A stretch of DNA of 6,139 nucleotides from Promethearchaeota archaeon (GCA_027031765.1 JALVPN010000051.1:1-6139), one strand, 5' to 3'. Numbered from the stretch's first letter, positions 2 through 6,005 are shown. Notes: a model not told the origin generated them from the letters alone. Made by a program: numbers and translations.

Positions 2-1417
2 GTGTTTCTCGACGAGGACCTTGGGCCGTGCTCTGTTGCCACCAACATCCCCAGGGATGTCCTTGCGTCCGTGGGCGTCGACCTGGGCCGCGTGCGTGCC
101 GGGATTGTCCGCATCCCGGACTTCAAGGAGGTCGTGGCCCGCCTGAGGGCCAAGCAGCTGGTCGGTGACACGACCGCAAGGGGGGGATATCATGAGACCT
201 ACGGATATCATGAGACCTACTTCTGGGTGACAGTGCCGAGCGTGTGGACGCGGAACGAGACCCTGAGAATAAGGTTCCAGTGTGTGACTGACAGCAACAG
301 GCCCAAGACCTTCCCGGTGGCGTTCGAGGGGTATGACAATGATACCCCTACAAGCTACGTGCAGGAGTTCTCGGTCTCGGGCTACCTGCACGTCAGGAAC
401 GGTTACGGCTCCCAGGAGCTCAGGGTGCGCATCCCATTCACATCGGTGGGTGTGAAGAGGGGCGTGGCACGCGTCGGTGGCGCGCTGTTGTACAAGGACT
501 ACGGGTACAACTTCGTGCAGGTCTTCGGGCCGAGCGACCTGCCATATCTCCCGCCCAGGGATGTCATGTCGGATGCCTCGAACAATCCGCACTACTACTG
601 GGAGGGGCTCAGGAGCACCGACGGGTTCGGTATTCCAGACGAGTATGCCCTGTACCACAGTGACAGCTGGAAGGTCAGGTGGGCAGCTGCTCAGCTTGTC
701 GATGACTATCGCGTCCCGTGTGTGAGCGGGGCCGCCGTGATCATGACGTACCAGGTGCACAACAGGATGACCTACGACAAGGCCCTCACCGTGGGTGGTA
801 TTTTAGCCCTGCCGTACGGTGTGTCAGACTGGGAGGTCATGGACGCGGGATGGAGAGGTGTCTGTGACGAGTTCATGACCATGGAGGTCTCGATGCTCAG
901 GGCCCTCGGGATTCCGATGAGACACATCAGCGGAGGCGAGTCCCACACAGACCGCAATACGGGAAATCTTGTGACGAATGCTCATGCATGGTGCGAGGTC
1001 TGGACCGTTGACAACCTGTGGTGGGAAGGGGCACTGGATGAGGACTCGGATGAGGCCTGGAGGATGTGGGAGATTGGATACAAGTGTCCGTACGCCAGTC
1101 AGTGGGACTGGGACCCGACAAGGCCCGATGGGTTCATCTGGTTCTGGGACATATGGAAGAGCTGGGACAAGCCCAATGTGACAATGACATGGATACACGC
1201 TGACCCAACGATGCTCCTCTGGAACGACCCCAAGTTCCACCAGTCGTTTGAGTATCCCTACACATGGTTCTACGTCTGGTCATGCTGTAATGACAGCCTG
1301 TCCAACCATGACGGGAGTGATTGTGACGGCCTATTATCGCCCCACTGGCTTGGTGAGGACCCCCCGGGCGACTACGGCTATGGGGTTTCGTACTTCAGGC
1401 CAAACCAATATGTGTGA
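2..1417 (+). CDS. Transglutaminase-like (papain-fold, Cys-His-Asp) domain protein, 5'-partial
   Basis: Frame is open from the window edge, so GTG at 2 is probably an internal Val. Ordered motifs: VHNRMTYD; EVMDAGWRGVCDEF...SMLRALGIPMR (Cys288, 863-865); HAWCEVW (His328, 983-985); WIHADPT (Asp401, 1202-1204). These match the transglutaminase-like core pattern GxCxxxA...LRxxGIPxR...HAWxEV...W...DPT. Stop TGA at 1415-1417. Confidence 0.85.
   Translation: MFLDEDLGPCSVATNIPRDVLASVGVDLGRVRAGIVRIPDFKEVVARLRAKQLVGDTTARGGYHETYGYHETYFWVTVPSVWTRNETLRIRFQCVTDSNRPKTFPVAFEGYDNDTPTSYVQEFSVSGYLHVRNGYGSQELRVRIPFTSVGVKRGVARVGGALLYKDYGYNFVQVFGPSDLPYLPPRDVMSDASNNPHYYWEGLRSTDGFGIPDEYALYHSDSWKVRWAAAQLVDDYRVPCVSGAAVIMTYQVHNRMTYDKALTVGGILALPYGVSDWEVMDAGWRGVCDEFMTMEVSMLRALGIPMRHISGGESHTDRNTGNLVTNAHAWCEVWTVDNLWWEGALDEDSDEAWRMWEIGYKCPYASQWDWDPTRPDGFIWFWDIWKSWDKPNVTMTWIHADPTMLLWNDPKFHQSFEYPYTWFYVWSCCNDSLSNHDGSDCDGLLSPHWLGEDPPGDYGYGVSYFRPNQYV
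185..220 (+). repeat. Perfect in-frame 18-bp tandem duplication (GGATATCATGAGACCTAC x2, encoding GYHETY x2)
   Basis: 185-202 and 203-220 are identical and codon-aligned with the CDS. Confidence 0.97.
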
Positions 1418-1429: not shown

Positions 1430-2437
1430 ATGAAAGAAGGCAGAGCTGCACTCATCATTCTGTTCCTCTTGACTACAGTCCTGTCCTACCAGGGTCTGTT
1501 GCGCTCTGGAGTGACTGTTGGGTGCCCCTCTGGATTCGGCTTACAACGGGGGACTGCTGATGTGGGATATGCAGTCGTCCTGGACATCACTGTGAACGGG
1601 AGTACGTACGAGTACAGGTCGAACAGTTCCACAGAACTCATACGGCATTATGCCCCCTCTCTCTTGGAAAACCAGTCAGTTGCGGCAATGGCTGGGAGAA
1701 CGGACGGCATGGTTGCCAGCTACGCCGGTGGGAACCTGCCCTACGCCGGTGGGAACCCGCCCTATGAGCTTCACATCGCTGCGTTCAACCAGACCACATA
1801 CGTGAACCTGTTCGTAGAGTTTGTCGCCCGGCGTCTTGACAACGGCACTGTTCAGGTCGACGACCTCCAGTCTTCCATCACGGTGTACGATGATGATGAC
1901 CTTGAATGTTCACACATCGACATCCTTGTCGCGACGCTAGCTGCAGCTCACAACCACTCCCTCGAACTCATTGACCGACATACGTTTGAGCCACAGCCGG
2001 GATACCCAGTCCTCCTATTGCCCGGGAAGCGCTCATTGTCGCGGGCGTGGGAGGGTATCCGGATGCGTATCGCGGGCGGGTGCTGCCACTACGAGGCACC
2101 ATCTCTCAGGGTGGACACAGCTGAGGTGCCCCTGTGGGTAGTGACAGCCACATACAACATGTCTGGGTCTGAGATTGATGAAATCCTAGCAGCCAAGTAC
2201 AACAGGTCTTACACCGGTGGAACCGACTGGTGGTGCCCGTGGCCGGTCACGTTCGTCTTCACTCTGAACGGGACTCTGCTGATGGTCGATAGCCCTCCTG
2301 TCACAGCCTGCATGACAACTGGCAACTCGACCATCACCAACACGACTGTCGGCCCATTGGTGGGTGTGTCTGGGACAGCCATGGCCGCGGTCGTGGTGGC
2401 GGTCGTGCTTGCTCGGTCCAAGCGAGGACATCGGTGA
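1430..2437 (+). CDS. Hypothetical membrane-anchored cell-surface (glyco)protein
   Basis: 335 aa. N-terminal K/R followed by a hydrophobic stretch (MKEGRAALIILFLLTTVLS). 11 N-x-S/T sequons. Thr-rich linker TTGNSTITNTT, C-terminal hydrophobic helix (GPLVGVSGTAMAAVVVAVVLA) and basic tail RSKRGHR. No recognised catalytic family. Confidence 0.8.
   Translation: MKEGRAALIILFLLTTVLSYQGLLRSGVTVGCPSGFGLQRGTADVGYAVVLDITVNGSTYEYRSNSSTELIRHYAPSLLENQSVAAMAGRTDGMVASYAGGNLPYAGGNPPYELHIAAFNQTTYVNLFVEFVARRLDNGTVQVDDLQSSITVYDDDDLECSHIDILVATLAAAHNHSLELIDRHTFEPQPGYPVLLLPGKRSLSRAWEGIRMRIAGGCCHYEAPSLRVDTAEVPLWVVTATYNMSGSEIDEILAAKYNRSYTGGTDWWCPWPVTFVFTLNGTLLMVDSPPVTACMTTGNSTITNTTVGPLVGVSGTAMAAVVVAVVLARSKRGHR
1720..1764 (+). 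repeat. In-frame 21-bp tandem duplication with 1 mismatch (YAGGNLP / YAGGNPP)
   Basis: CTACGCCGGTGGGAACCTGCC (1720-1740) and CTACGCCGGTGGGAACCCGCC (1741-1761) differ only at T1737/C1758, followed by a partial third CTA. Confidence 0.95.
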
Positions 2438-2772: not shown

Positions 2773-3900
2773 TTACCACCAACCTACAGGAGAAAGCTCT
2801 GCTCTCAGGTACTTCACATGGGGACAGGCTGACCTGAGCGCCTCGGCCTCATCGCGAAGAGCACTGCTGTAGAGATAGAGGCCCTTCAGGCTGCTCACGT
2901 CCCGGAGTGGCGTGATGTCTATGTGTTCGAAGCCATTTTCCTGGAGGTGCAGCCACTCAAGGTTGTGGCATTCTGCAAGTGGGGTCAGGTCTATGGACAC
3001 AAGCCCCATCCGTGCGAGGTCCAACACCCTGAGTTCTCTGCACCTTGCAAGTGGACTGAGGTCGAGTGTCCGAGCCCAGTTATCCCTCAGGCACAGGGTG
3101 CGCAGTCCGGGCCACTGCTCGAGTACCGTGAGGGACGGGTCTTTGAGCTCGTTACCACAGAGGTAGAGTCGCTCCATCTTTGAGCAAGTCCTCAGTGGTG
3201 AGAGGTCTACTGTCCGGAGCCCGTTCGTCGAGAGCGACAGCACTCTGAGCTCGGTGCACTTGGCAAGAGGCGACAGGTCAATGTGCTCAATGTTGTTGCA
3301 TGCGAGGGACAGGTGTCTCAGGCCCCTGCACTTTGCGAGCGGCTCCAGGTCCACTTCGGTGATCTCGTTCTCGCGCAGGCAGAGCCATTCGAGAGACTCG
3401 CAACGGGACAGTGGTGTGAGGTCGACATCTCTTAGCCGGTTCCTACCAAGGGAGAGGCGTCTGAGTGTCCTGCAGCTTGCCAGTGGCGTCAGGTCGATTT
3501 CTTCCAGACGGTTCTCTGCCAGCGCGAGCACTTCCAGTCTGGTACAGTCGGCCAGTGGCGTCAGGTCGACTGCAGCCAACAGGTTCGAGTCTAGGTCAAG
3601 TACACGCAGTCCCCGGCAGGCGCGGAGCGGGTCAAGGTCAATCTCTTCCAGGTGGTTTCCAGCCATGAGAAGGGACTCCAGTTGGGGCCAGTGTTGTACG
3701 CACGTCAGGTCAATGTGCGCAATCCCCCTCGTGTCCAGCCATAGCTCTGACGCACTGTCCTCGTAAGGTGTCTTTACACGAGTACCGTCCCGTCTTGTGT
3801 ACTCGATATGCAAAGCTACCGGTCTCTCCCACTGGTCATTGGACTCGTGTCCGGTCTGGGGGCGCCGAGATCCGTGCTGCCATAGCCCGTCTGCCCTCAT
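2773..3900 (-). CDS. Leucine-rich repeat protein (24-aa repeats), probably cytoplasmic
   Basis: Consensus LxxLxLxxNxLxxIDLxPLxxCxx in 11 full units plus partial flanking units. No signal peptide or TM helix. Stop TAA at 2773-2775. Start uncertain: ATG 3900 has no SD, and TTG at 3813, just before HIEYTRRDG, has GGGAG 12 nt upstream. Confidence 0.92.
   Translation of the reverse strand: MRADGLWQHGSRRPQTGHESNDQWERPVALHIEYTRRDGTRVKTPYEDSASELWLDTRGIAHIDLTCVQHWPQLESLLMAGNHLEEIDLDPLRACRGLRVLDLDSNLLAAVDLTPLADCTRLEVLALAENRLEEIDLTPLASCRTLRRLSLGRNRLRDVDLTPLSRCESLEWLCLRENEITEVDLEPLAKCRGLRHLSLACNNIEHIDLSPLAKCTELRVLSLSTNGLRTVDLSPLRTCSKMERLYLCGNELKDPSLTVLEQWPGLRTLCLRDNWARTLDLSPLARCRELRVLDLARMGLVSIDLTPLAECHNLEWLHLQENGFEHIDITPLRDVSSLKGLYLYSSALRDEAEALRSACPHVKYLRAELSPVGWW
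2890..3681 (-). repeat. LRR array: 11 x 72 bp coding repeats (aa 74-337)
   Basis: Units begin LESLL, LRVLD, LEVLA, LRRLS, LEWLC, LRHLS, LRVLS, MERLY, LRTLC, LRVLD and LEWLH at exact 24-aa spacing. The 19-mer GCCAGTGGCGTCAGGTCGA occurs at 3479 and 3551, 72 bp apart. Confidence 0.95.
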
Positions 3901-4031: not shown

Positions 4032-6005
4032 CTACTGTTCTCGACGGAGGAACCGGGAGTAGACGACTATGACCACGGCAGCACCTGCCTCAGCCGCAAT
4101 GATAGCCCCATAGACCGTGGGGTGAACCGTGAACGTAGTGTTGCCAGTGGGAGGTGTCGTGTCAGGAGAGGTGGTGTTGTCAGTCCCCGGCGTCGTGGGT
4201 GCCGTAGTGTCTGTGGTTGTTGGAGTGGTGGTCGTAGTTGTCACTGTCGTTGTGGTCGTCGCCGTATCAGGGCCAGGCGGTGGCCATGACCGGTGAGGTG
4301 CAAAGCAGTACTCCGGGTTGTACGTCAGTTCGCAGTAGTTTCCTTGGACGTAGCCCGACACATTGAACGGGCCTGATGTGACCATTGGCTCCGCGGGTGG
4401 CTGTGGGTTCCAAGTGCTCCAGTTCTCCGGTGGTATCTGCGTGAAGACATGCTTTGGTATGATGTTCTTGTAGGCGACGGAGTGGAGGTGCCAGTAGGAC
4501 TCTGAGGTGAACTCCATGACAACAGTATCGGAGTCTTGGGCATAAGCGGCCACAATGTCTTCGAGGCCGGCTGCGAGCGGGTTGCCGGGTGAGTCACGGT
4601 AGTAGTTCATTGAGAACGCCACATCTTCAGCGGTCAGCGGTTGGCCATCTGTCCACGTCGCGTTGTCCACGAGGTGAAACGTGAGGCGGGTGTTTCCCTC
4701 CGGTACTGCCGGGTTGTCCGCATGGGTCTCTATGACATAGCTCTCCGCAAGCCATGGCATGTCCCGCCCGTCCGGCCCCATTCGTAGGAGGCTGTCATAC
4801 AGCATCTGGAGCACAGGCGAGGGGTATGAGAGCGCCCCGGCGAGGACCATGAAGTTGAACGTCCCGACATCGGTTGCCGTGGCCCACCTGAAGGTGCCGC
4901 CGAAGGGCGCGCCCTCCTGGTCTGCGCGCAGGTGTACCTTGTAGTTGGTCCAGTAGTTTGGGACTCCAGTGACTACGTCATTGACGAAGCCCTCGAACCT
5001 GTCGGTACGGTAGGCCGAAACGATGGCGTTCTCGTAGCAGACAATCATCGGGCATGCGTGCACCCAGATCTCCTGCATGGCGAACGCTGCATCGTAGACA
5101 TCCTGGTAGTCGGTCGCATGGAGCAGCTGGGCCCTGTAGGAGTTGTACGTGACATTGTCCCAGTTCGGGAAGTTCTGGGAGGGCTCGTAAGTGGACTCCG
5201 CCCAGAACTGATAGGCCAGCCAGTCGACGTCGAAGGTGGTGAGAGTCATGGTGCTGAACGCTATGTCATAGTTTCCGTGAAAGTACAGTCTGTTGATGAG
5301 CTCGTAGAAGTCCACTGTCAGGAGCTCTGCGTCCACGGAGAGCGCTTCGAGCGCATCGACCACCTCTTGCCCCACCCCAATGGCTATCTGTGATGACTCG
5401 GGGCACTCCACCTTCACATCGAACGGGTTGCCGTGCGGGTCGTTCCTGAAGCCGGTAACGGGGTCAATCTCAAACCCGGCCTCGTCGAGGAGCCTGTTGC
5501 CGAGCTCAACGTTGCCCTCGTAGTACGTGTACGGGAGGTGGCCCTCGCATGAGAACGGGTTCACCTTTGGCACGCAGGAGTCCAGCGGCTCAGACAGGCC
5601 GTCCCAGACATCCCGGGAGATTGCCTCCTTATCAAGCGCAAAGGCAAGCGCCCTGCGGAACAATGTGTAGTTCAACGGGTTCTTCACCGTGTTCAGGGTG
5701 ACGTACCCATAGCCGTTCCGGAGTAGCCTGGCAGTTTCGATGTTCTCCACCGCCTCCAGCGCCGACAGATATGAGGGGTCAACCGCATCCCCAATCAGGT
5801 CGACCTCGTTGTTCTGCAGGGCGAGCACCTGCGCATCACTACCCTCAACTACAGTGTAGACCACCTTGTCGATGTAGGGGCCGACCTTTTCTCCAAACGG
5901 CAGTTCAAGGGTCTGCGCTCGTGCGGCCAGAGGGACTGCATGCACTGACGCAAGTACAACGACCAGCATCAGGGCAGCCAGCTGTTGTGCAGGCCAGTCA
6001 GGCAT
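4032..6005 (-). CDS. ABC transporter family 5 (OppA/DppA/NikA-like) substrate-binding protein, circularly permuted, with C-terminal membrane anchor
   Basis: Family motifs: PYIDKVVY, ALQNNEVD, FRRALAFALDK, LLDEAGF, GGTFRW, LYDSLL, PWLAES, WTDGQPLTAEDVAFS, TSGPF, YNPEY. Signal-peptide-like N-terminus without a lipobox Cys, Thr-rich stalk, TM helix and basic tail. 7 N-x-S/T sequons. Strong SD upstream. Stop TAG at 4032-4034. Substrate not determinable. Confidence 0.93.
   Translation of the reverse strand: MPDWPAQQLAALMLVVVLASVHAVPLAARAQTLELPFGEKVGPYIDKVVYTVVEGSDAQVLALQNNEVDLIGDAVDPSYLSALEAVENIETARLLRNGYGYVTLNTVKNPLNYTLFRRALAFALDKEAISRDVWDGLSEPLDSCVPKVNPFSCEGHLPYTYYEGNVELGNRLLDEAGFEIDPVTGFRNDPHGNPFDVKVECPESSQIAIGVGQEVVDALEALSVDAELLTVDFYELINRLYFHGNYDIAFSTMTLTTFDVDWLAYQFWAESTYEPSQNFPNWDNVTYNSYRAQLLHATDYQDVYDAAFAMQEIWVHACPMIVCYENAIVSAYRTDRFEGFVNDVVTGVPNYWTNYKVHLRADQEGAPFGGTFRWATATDVGTFNFMVLAGALSYPSPVLQMLYDSLLRMGPDGRDMPWLAESYVIETHADNPAVPEGNTRLTFHLVDNATWTDGQPLTAEDVAFSMNYYRDSPGNPLAAGLEDIVAAYAQDSDTVVMEFTSESYWHLHSVAYKNIIPKHVFTQIPPENWSTWNPQPPAEPMVTSGPFNVSGYVQGNYCELTYNPEYCFAPHRSWPPPGPDTATTTTTVTTTTTTPTTTDTTAPTTPGTDNTTSPDTTPPTGNTTFTVHPTVYGAIIAAEAGAAVVIVVYSRFLRREQ
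4128..4283 (-). repeat. Thr/Pro-rich low-complexity stalk (28 Thr in 52 aa)
   Basis: PPPGPDTATTTTTVTTTTTTPTTTDTTAPTTPGTDNTTSPDTTPPTGNTTFT lies between the binding domain and the TM anchor; Thr codons are mixed (not a DNA microsatellite). Confidence 0.93.

Follow-up and report, generated by a model that had tools for sequence, protein, structure and literature searches.

An ABC-transporter binding protein that is circularly permuted in nature has previously been described in Treponema pallidum, namely TpMglB-2 (Tp0684), which Brautigam et al. 2016 assigned to "Type Ic / Cluster Bc" (PMC4990184). Cluster Bc is defined by a cluster B (type I) fold in which the first three N-lobe strands have moved to the C-terminus; the TpMglB-2 clade consists mostly of tethered proteins, ligand binding is retained, and a link to tethering was raised by the authors (PMC4990184). 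Engineered permutants of maltose- and ribose-binding proteins, made as biosensors, are reported to show that periplasmic binding folds tolerate new termini. The closest canonical proteins are those of cluster C, such as E. coli DppA (1DPP/1DPE), B. subtilis AppA (1XOC), NikA/NikZ, Thermotoga TM1223 and the Vibrio chitin-oligosaccharide protein, which have the same fold as both pieces of the protein analyzed here and belong to the same Pfam family (SBP_bac_5, here called family 5).

Here we analyze a gene in a 6,139-nt stretch of Asgard-archaeal DNA (the window, by which we mean the whole stretch), whose product carries these two pieces in rotated order. The name cp1 is given to the clade of family-5 proteins with the order of the window protein. 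In the best explanation that we can offer, cp1 is an old clade of Asgard archaea, other archaea and Bacillota with one cut point in all members, and the window gene is an orphan paralogue encoding a functional, circularly permuted cluster C / SBP_bac_5 binding protein that is extracellular, C-terminally anchored and predicted to serve an importer. We put the probability of these two statements, taken jointly, at about 80%.

Inverted order of the two segments in the window protein

The gene and its parts are listed in Table 1. Lobe II lies entirely in segment B, along with a portion of lobe I and the two hinge crossings, and segment A holds the first strand of lobe I together with the extra domain Ib. 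Membership in SBP_bac_5 (PF00496) is given by 186 bits against a cut-off of 32.4. None of the named family-5 equivalogs in NCBIfam (Opp4A, NikA, DppA, OppA, GsiB, SapA and CntA) scored above its curated cut-off; the best of them was Opp4A with 100 bits against a cut-off of 650, and all matches were partial. An N-terminal hydrophobic signal-like segment and a C-terminal anchor, both read from the sequence, would suit export and an extracytoplasmic location, and no archaeosortase-type C-terminal signal was recognised in the window protein by the NCBIfam models.

Table 1 Coordinates of the permuted binding protein gene and its parts within the window.
Feature	Coordinates (nt)	Strand	Evidence
Whole gene, 657 aa + stop, circularly permuted family-5 substrate-binding protein (P0001)	4032..6005	minus	Single open frame; SBP_bac_5 186 bits; >120 collinear homologues, 50-64% identity
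Signal-peptide-like N-terminus, residues 1-30; hydrophobic core, A-R-A before Q31	5916..6005	minus	Sequence reading
Segment B, residues 38-359 = canonical C-terminal ~60% (DppA 206-507)	4929..5894	minus	Pfam profile 146-364; model alignment to 1dpp; canonical HMM 239-526
New linker, residues 360-368 (9 residues), old C-terminus to old N-terminus	4902..4928	minus	~10 extra family residues exactly at the 507/1 junction of doubled DppA
Segment A, residues 369-572 = canonical N-terminal ~190-215 residues	4290..4901	minus	Pfam profile 4-141; model of residues 357-581
Thr/Pro-rich stalk with N-x-T sequons, residues 573-630 (~58 residues)	4116..4289	minus	Sequence reading; weak mucin-like Pfam match
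Hydrophobic transmembrane anchor, residues 631-649 (19 residues), then basic tail 650-657	4035..4115	minus	Hydropathy scan

An earlier note on this DNA had proposed a natural circular permutation between coordinates 4302 and 5882, which correspond to residues 42-568 (G42 at nt 5882, G369 at nt 4901, F568 ending at nt 4302), and every motif quoted there lies at the residue given for it in the 657-aa frame. It had predicted two inverted partial matches to SBP_bac_5, and this is exactly what the Pfam search gave: the match is split in two stretches of inverted order, where nt 5193-5879 correspond to profile positions 146-364 and nt 4305-4757 to positions 4-141. The same inversion was seen with an HMM of canonical proteins, in which residues 38-343 correspond to positions 239-526 and residues 369-589 to positions 55-254, and in sequence matches to the PDB, where residues 111-355 and 434-566 align with 266-518 and 61-187, respectively, of 7ebm, the Vibrio chitin-oligosaccharide binding protein. 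In DppA, residues 208-492 were matched by residues 42-341 of the window protein. When a profile from 61 family members was aligned to two DppA copies in tandem, one collinear family alignment resulted, running from residue 207 to 609, across the 507/1 junction and into the next copy to residue 102. A single full-length match to DppA or OppA in canonical order, named earlier as the result that would speak against permutation, did not appear; the searches gave the two inverted stretches instead.

It is clear from sequence and predicted structure together that the window protein is a clean circular permutant with no part lost and none duplicated. The position of the join, where the old C-terminus meets the old N-terminus at about nt 4902-4930, is confirmed, as is the reopening of the chain in the loop before G-P-Y-I-D. 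The proposal of a natural permutation is thereby supported by sequence, profile and predicted-structure evidence, the same three lines uphold the join and the reopening in the loop before K/G-P-x-I-D, and the signal peptide and the stalk are seen, on reading the sequence, at the two new ends where the earlier note had put them.

A full AlphaFold model computed from the family alignment (pLDDT 92.5, pTM 0.90) superimposed with residues 10-331 on residues 206-507 of 1dpp (DppA), with Z 28.0 and an rmsd of 4.3 Å over 297 aligned residues. A separate model of residues 357-581 (pLDDT 89.4) fitted NikZ 1-188 with Z 18.9 and an rmsd of 2.6 Å over 186 aligned residues, and also NikA 4-189, the chitin-oligosaccharide binding protein 1-191, AppA and others with Z 16-19. 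With sequential structure aligners, no solved structure took up more than about 310-340 of the 545 model residues (TM by query 0.43-0.50), and the segment-B part scored Z 26-29 against solved cluster C structures; the structure comparison of the model with the PDB found no solved structure with this topology. According to the models, the bilobed fold with the cluster C extra domain is present in the window protein. Judging from the alignments, the hinge would be untouched, since both lobe-to-lobe crossings lie within the first segment. An Atlas fold search pointed to a Bacillota cluster (TM 0.90, 522 residues), a lead that was then confirmed by sequence. An ESM Atlas feature search gave 0.99 for bacterial family-5 clusters but, as a method blind to chain order, was given no weight.

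Metagenome bins carry a general risk of error, and the rotated order could be read as a misassembly or as a gene-calling error over two canonical genes in tandem. The frame is, however, intact from the signal peptide through the anchor, segment-A-like sequence is absent upstream of the start, and the same order recurs in hundreds of independent assemblies. Furthermore, a contig from a second assembler (Logan), from the probable source sample, covers 4145-5079 with zero differences, the junction at 4902-4928 included, so that the misassembly near 4900-4930 against which the earlier note had warned was not found. We regard an artefact as refuted for practical purposes. The probable source sample, a hydrothermal-vent metagenome, was the only one listed as containing the window gene, and no RNA dataset was listed for it.

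The genome to which the window belongs (2.95 Mb, 95% complete) carries further permuted copies on contigs C211 (67-69% identity) and C146 (39%), and two fragments at contig ends, on C72 and C155, probably represent the two halves of a fourth. One clearly canonical copy lies on C176, and a partial match on C7 is unclassified.

Spread, origin and tethering of the cp1 clade

Nearly all of the collinear homologues counted in Table 1 come from Thorarchaeota bins. A search of 1.8 billion cluster representatives returned 251 representatives at E<=1e-30, and among the 150 matches listed the alignment was collinear down to 28% identity. In a survey of 301 sampled Asgard genomes, where full-length matches were counted by family, such matches were present in 70 of the 76 genomes from the family of the window, labelled Thorarchaeota, in the one genome of its sister family (1/1), in 12 of 19 genomes of a family labelled Hermodarchaeota and in 7 of 21 genomes of another Asgard family; the remaining Asgard families in the sample gave no match. 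Matches at E<=1e-35 were present in 24 of the 401 genomes sampled from a Bacillota-type phylum; of the matches listed, about ten extend collinearly over most of the profile, and the others are confined to its later part. The bacterial member P0288 (562 aa) has its Pfam stretches inverted, and its relatives were found in Limnochordia, Clostridia and "Firmicutes" bins, and also in Geothermarchaeales and Freyarchaeota. When scored with two segment profiles, 374 of 407 collected proteins had the B-A order. Tandem arrays of cp1 genes are common, cp1 modules occur inside giant proteins (2,427-6,240 aa), sometimes twice per protein, and the only database label of cp1 proteins is the generic "ABC transporter substrate-binding protein". 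A second permutation type with the order B2-A-B1, here called cp2, was found in Desulfacinum hydrothermale DSM 13146 (P0405, P0406), in a Korarchaeota bin and in a number of these same genomes from Asgard archaea and Bacillota.

On the question of a single origin, 34 cp1, 9 cp2 and 37 canonical proteins were set in canonical order in silico and a tree was computed from 489 columns under LG+C20. Most canonical and cp2 rows were drawn from the same genomes of Asgard archaea and Bacillota, with E. coli DppA and a few metagenomic matches added. A branch with SH-aLRT 98 set all cp1 rows apart from the others, and within them an Asgard subclade with a support of 100 stood beside a bacterial/Geothermarchaeales subclade. 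Since the re-ordering might bias this tree, it was repeated with only those 259 columns whose order both forms share. A free quick search on these columns split cp1 into two unsupported groups, and constraining cp1 to one clade improved on that tree by 11 lnL units (p-AU 0.75).

The same order in Bacteria and Asgard archaea could also have arisen repeatedly, with the same loop opened independently each time, and not from a single origin followed by gene transfer. Such changes do occur in the family, as the cp2 type needs at least two and up to five of them on the tree, and the split of cp1 in the free tree of the collinear segment points the same way, if without support. We consider repeated origin improbable: the well-supported branch and the better likelihood of the constrained one-clade tree argue against it, and so does the long form of the OppC permease described below, which bacterial and Asgard cp1 operons have in common but which is missing from the operons of canonical and cp2 type in the same bacterial genomes. 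Because cp1 forms one group on the trees, a single origin of the clade is favoured, as far as the small canonical sample of sequences allows. The frequency of tandem arrays makes an origin by tandem duplication and trimming plausible.

A C-terminal hydrophobic anchor was detected by hydropathy scan in 111 of 116 Asgard homologues as opposed to 3 of 95 bacterial ones, and the bacterial cp1 members end 1-5 residues after the domain. In Asgard genomes, family-5 proteins of the canonical and cp2 types are likewise mostly anchored at the C-terminus, several of them with PGF-like motifs, whereas those of Bacillota are not. Since canonical and cp2 proteins of Asgard genomes are anchored too and bacterial cp1 proteins are not, we take the anchor as a habit of these archaea that is not tied to the permutation. 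The permutation shifts the point on the fold where the anchor attaches, but the anchor cannot be the reason for the permutation. The idea in the earlier note that the permutation relocates the tether is therefore retained as a consequence in the Asgard members and dropped as a cause.

Genomic context, transporter linkage and ligand

The window gene is accompanied by genes for an LRR protein (2773-3900, minus strand) and a transglutaminase-like protein and by an ORF without assigned function, and there are no ABC transporter genes beside it within the 6,139 nt. At 20 of 76 Thorarchaeota loci, two oligo_HPY ATPase genes are followed by OppC, OppB and often a second OppC, and the cpSBP gene closes the operon; the other 56 loci have no permease genes within 8 kb, and among loci of at least 12 kb the latter holds for 30 of 47. 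The paralogue on C211 follows OppC and OppB genes and shares the synteny of the Thorarchaeota operons, down to a presenilin-like gene downstream. In bacteria, the order cpSBP-OppB-OppC-ATPases was found in all six cp1 operons (6/6). Since complete Opp/Dpp-type ABC operons contain paralogues of the window gene as well as bacterial cp1 genes, we read the window protein as a working importer binding protein.

With the canonical residues ~206-507 first, a linker of ~9 residues, and the canonical residues ~1-205 last, the Venus-flytrap fold and both hinge crossings would be kept, and from this ligand capture between the lobes and hand-over to the permease are to be expected. A ligand caught between the lobes would thus be passed to an Opp/Dpp-type (PepT-family) ABC permease, most likely a transporter shared with the 67-69% identical paralogue on C211.

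The orphan copy may on the other hand have kept the binding fold and lost its service to a transporter, and act as a surface receptor, an adhesin or a sensor module. This would agree with the lack of ABC genes in the window and of permease genes at most loci of its relatives (56/76, and 30/47 of those of at least 12 kb), and with the distant relatives, which are orphans beside unrelated genes. The cp1 modules within proteins of 2,400-6,240 aa likewise indicate that a transporter role is not needed in every member. Nevertheless, we find such a change of function unlikely. It is common in this family for additional orphan binding proteins to use a single permease together. Five DppA paralogues, for example, are reported for Pseudomonas aeruginosa (PMC4206461). 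The closest paralogue and its orthologues are operon-linked, and the window protein matches the operon-linked copies in length, anchor and conserved columns, all of which is more readily reconciled with a binding protein for import.

The OppC permease was long in every cp1 operon inspected, with lengths of 447-531 aa (six bacterial operons) and 477-555 aa (Thorarchaeota), corresponding to 145-252 extra residues between the first helix and the conserved core compared with E. coli DppC. In the same bacterial genomes, OppC has 264-317 aa in ten canonical operons and 292 and 319 aa in two cp2 operons, and the canonical-type operons of the window's own genome are intermediate (+120 and +140 residues). 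The insertion had no match in Pfam, PDB sequences or the Atlas. Because the cp1 operons are kin, the long OppC counts as one clade-level trait and not as many independent events. It could be that cp1 is a distinct ABC-importer subtype, in which the permuted binding protein and the long OppC, with its external domain of ~150-250 residues as a docking or gating partner, arose and work together, and in which the new chain ends eased module fusion in Asgard archaea. We regard this as rather doubtful; a complex prediction of the binding domain with OppC residues 60-310 scored 0.00, which speaks neither for nor against binding. If true, easy fusion would explain the several paralogues per Asgard genome and the use of the module inside giant surface proteins.

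As to the ligand, we estimate about 45% for a peptide, about 35% for an oligosaccharide and about 20% for another compound. On C146 the paralogue is flanked by genes for an M29 aminopeptidase and for an S8 subtilase longer than 2,400 aa, all in the same orientation, which speaks for peptides. [quoted passage not shown] In a profile alignment, which is uncertain in this loop at 18-20% identity, the R383 column is a DppA insertion absent from cp1, and the D436 column has Asp in 2 of 34 cp1 rows compared with 15 of 37 canonical rows; since the residues are not conserved, they give no ligand assignment. A transporter binding protein for oligosaccharides or another non-peptide ligand, similar to the Opp-like sugar binders of thermophiles, is a possibility to which we give less weight but which has support in the sequence matches, as the best solved ones are sugar binders (the Vibrio chitin-oligosaccharide and Thermotoga mannoside proteins, E 1e-16 to 1e-14, versus 2e-8 for DppA), and in the lack of conservation of the peptide-end Arg and Asp. 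Apart from the peptidase neighbours on C146, it is opposed by the operons inspected, none of which adjoins a glycoside hydrolase gene, and by the peptide binder AppA, which equals the sugar binders in structure score.

Comparison with known permutants and canonical proteins

The full-text literature searched, largely of journals outside subscription, held no published description of permuted family-5 proteins, and no NCBIfam model covers the cp1 topology. The suggestion in the earlier note that such proteins had not been described for family 5 was contradicted neither by this literature nor by solved structures. The cp1 clade of the well-studied cluster C family therefore seems to be undescribed, with TpMglB-2, a permuted glucose binder of cluster B, as the nearest precedent. 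Much as cluster C has been studied, a clade of rotated order that is shared by Asgard archaea and Bacillota has apparently been overlooked. There are two annotation pitfalls: profile databases split permutants into two partial matches, and sequential aligners give TM values of ~0.45-0.5. The clade is a natural folding experiment, in which a large three-domain hinge protein tolerates new termini, and it offers biosensor engineering cut sites validated by nature. The link to the long OppC is a transporter variant worth a structure.

The operons of the cp1 relatives are of the same kind as those of canonical cluster C proteins, with OppB/OppC permeases and oligo_HPY ATPases, but the cp1 chain is rotated, the residues at the ligand ends in DppA are not conserved, and the cognate OppC has a large external insertion. 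The cp2 proteins share with cp1 the family and the join between old C-terminus and old N-terminus, and differ in a cut ~130 profile positions later (canonical HMM ~370-376 versus ~239-255); they are scattered on the tree and sit in operons with a short OppC, whereas cp1 forms one group with a long one. The engineered permutants are, unlike cp1, man-made, belong to other clusters and do not constitute an evolving clade. Cluster Bc identity was considered for the window protein and rejected, as every match found by sequence or by fold was to a protein of cluster C. TpMglB-2 resembles cp1 in being a natural permutation of an ABC binding protein that is conserved in a clade. It differs in belonging to cluster B, with sugar binders of ~350 aa, and in that only three strands of one lobe have moved and a fourth hinge crossing has been created, whereas in cp1 the moved part comprises ~200 residues, including the whole extra domain, and there are as many hinge crossings as before.

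Neighbourhood and C-terminal tail of the window gene

The genes found beside the permuted gene in the window are listed in the table together with the other loci treated here. The 335-residue open reading frame among them gave zero Pfam matches. At three loci in other Asgard genomes (L116, L112 and L123), the family-5 proteins, canonical as well as of the second permutation type (cp2), end in a PGF-like motif followed by a hydrophobic helix and a basic tail, which may be an archaeosortase signal. The window protein lacks this putative signal.

Coordinates of the genes and fragments discussed (L, examined loci; P, collected proteins; L007, operon-linked locus of the window's own genome)
Feature	Location	Strand	Remark
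Transglutaminase-like protein	window 2-1417	+	frame open at left window end
ORF, 335 aa	window 1430-2437	+	
Leucine-rich-repeat protein, 375 aa	window 2773-3900	-	
~290-aa gene	L007:4314-5213; L159:12067-12945; L160:11893-12853	- (L007)	immediately downstream of operon-linked permuted SBP
VIT/von Willebrand A protein	L007:10285-12270	-	between OppB and second OppC
Long OppC, own genome	L007:14023-15630; L007:7821-9365	- (both)	
Long OppC, further loci	L159:4817-6457; L159:8245-9828; L161:11796-13391; L163-L167		
M29 aminopeptidase	L008 (own contig C146):5189-6268	+	adjoins permuted paralogue
Permuted paralogue, 39% identical	L008 (own contig C146):6457-8589	+	flanked by aminopeptidase and subtilase
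Subtilase, >2,400 aa, many Ig-like domains	L008 (own contig C146):8801-16000	+	
Fragment, N-terminal half (segment B)	own contig C72:169-1122	-	contig end
Fragment, C-terminal half (segment A and tail)	own contig C155:3387-3830	-	contig end
Six permuted SBP genes in tandem	G139:C2:75766-87819		one Asgard genome
cp2 instances	P0405; P0406 (L162:7001-8644); L112, L118, L119, L136, L139, L143; P0400		

Operons of the cp1 clade

In operons of cp1, the permuted clade that holds the window protein, OppC carries an external insertion of 145-252 residues past its first helix. Two such long genes per operon are frequent in Thorarchaeota; the own-genome pair is 68% identical, and the conserved core of one member lacks ~18 residues. 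The position of the ~290-aa downstream gene is kept in several Thorarchaeota. At one of the three tabulated loci its product has no Pfam match to presenilin, and at the other two it has a weak one. The VIT/von Willebrand A gene is not present in the orthologous operons L159 and L160.

A second permutation

The cp2 proteins share the fold of cp1 with the chain order B2-A-B1, cut at canonical HMM position ~370-376, and a short OppC goes with them. They are held by the cultured Desulfacinum hydrothermale DSM 13146, one Korarchaeota bin, and cp1-bearing Asgard and Bacillota genomes. In the tree they are scattered, with five changes, at least two of them forced.

Further copies, giant proteins and tandem arrays

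The three L008 genes lie on one common strand and may form a protein-degradation and uptake cluster. The C72 and C155 fragments look like the halves of a fourth permuted paralogue separated by assembly. One or two permuted binding modules also occur inside each of several giant metagenomic proteins, presumably surface proteins (P0122, 4308 aa; P0142, 2427 aa; P0244, 6240 aa; P0126, P0127 and P0124). The six-gene tandem array constitutes raw material for re-permutation and fusion.
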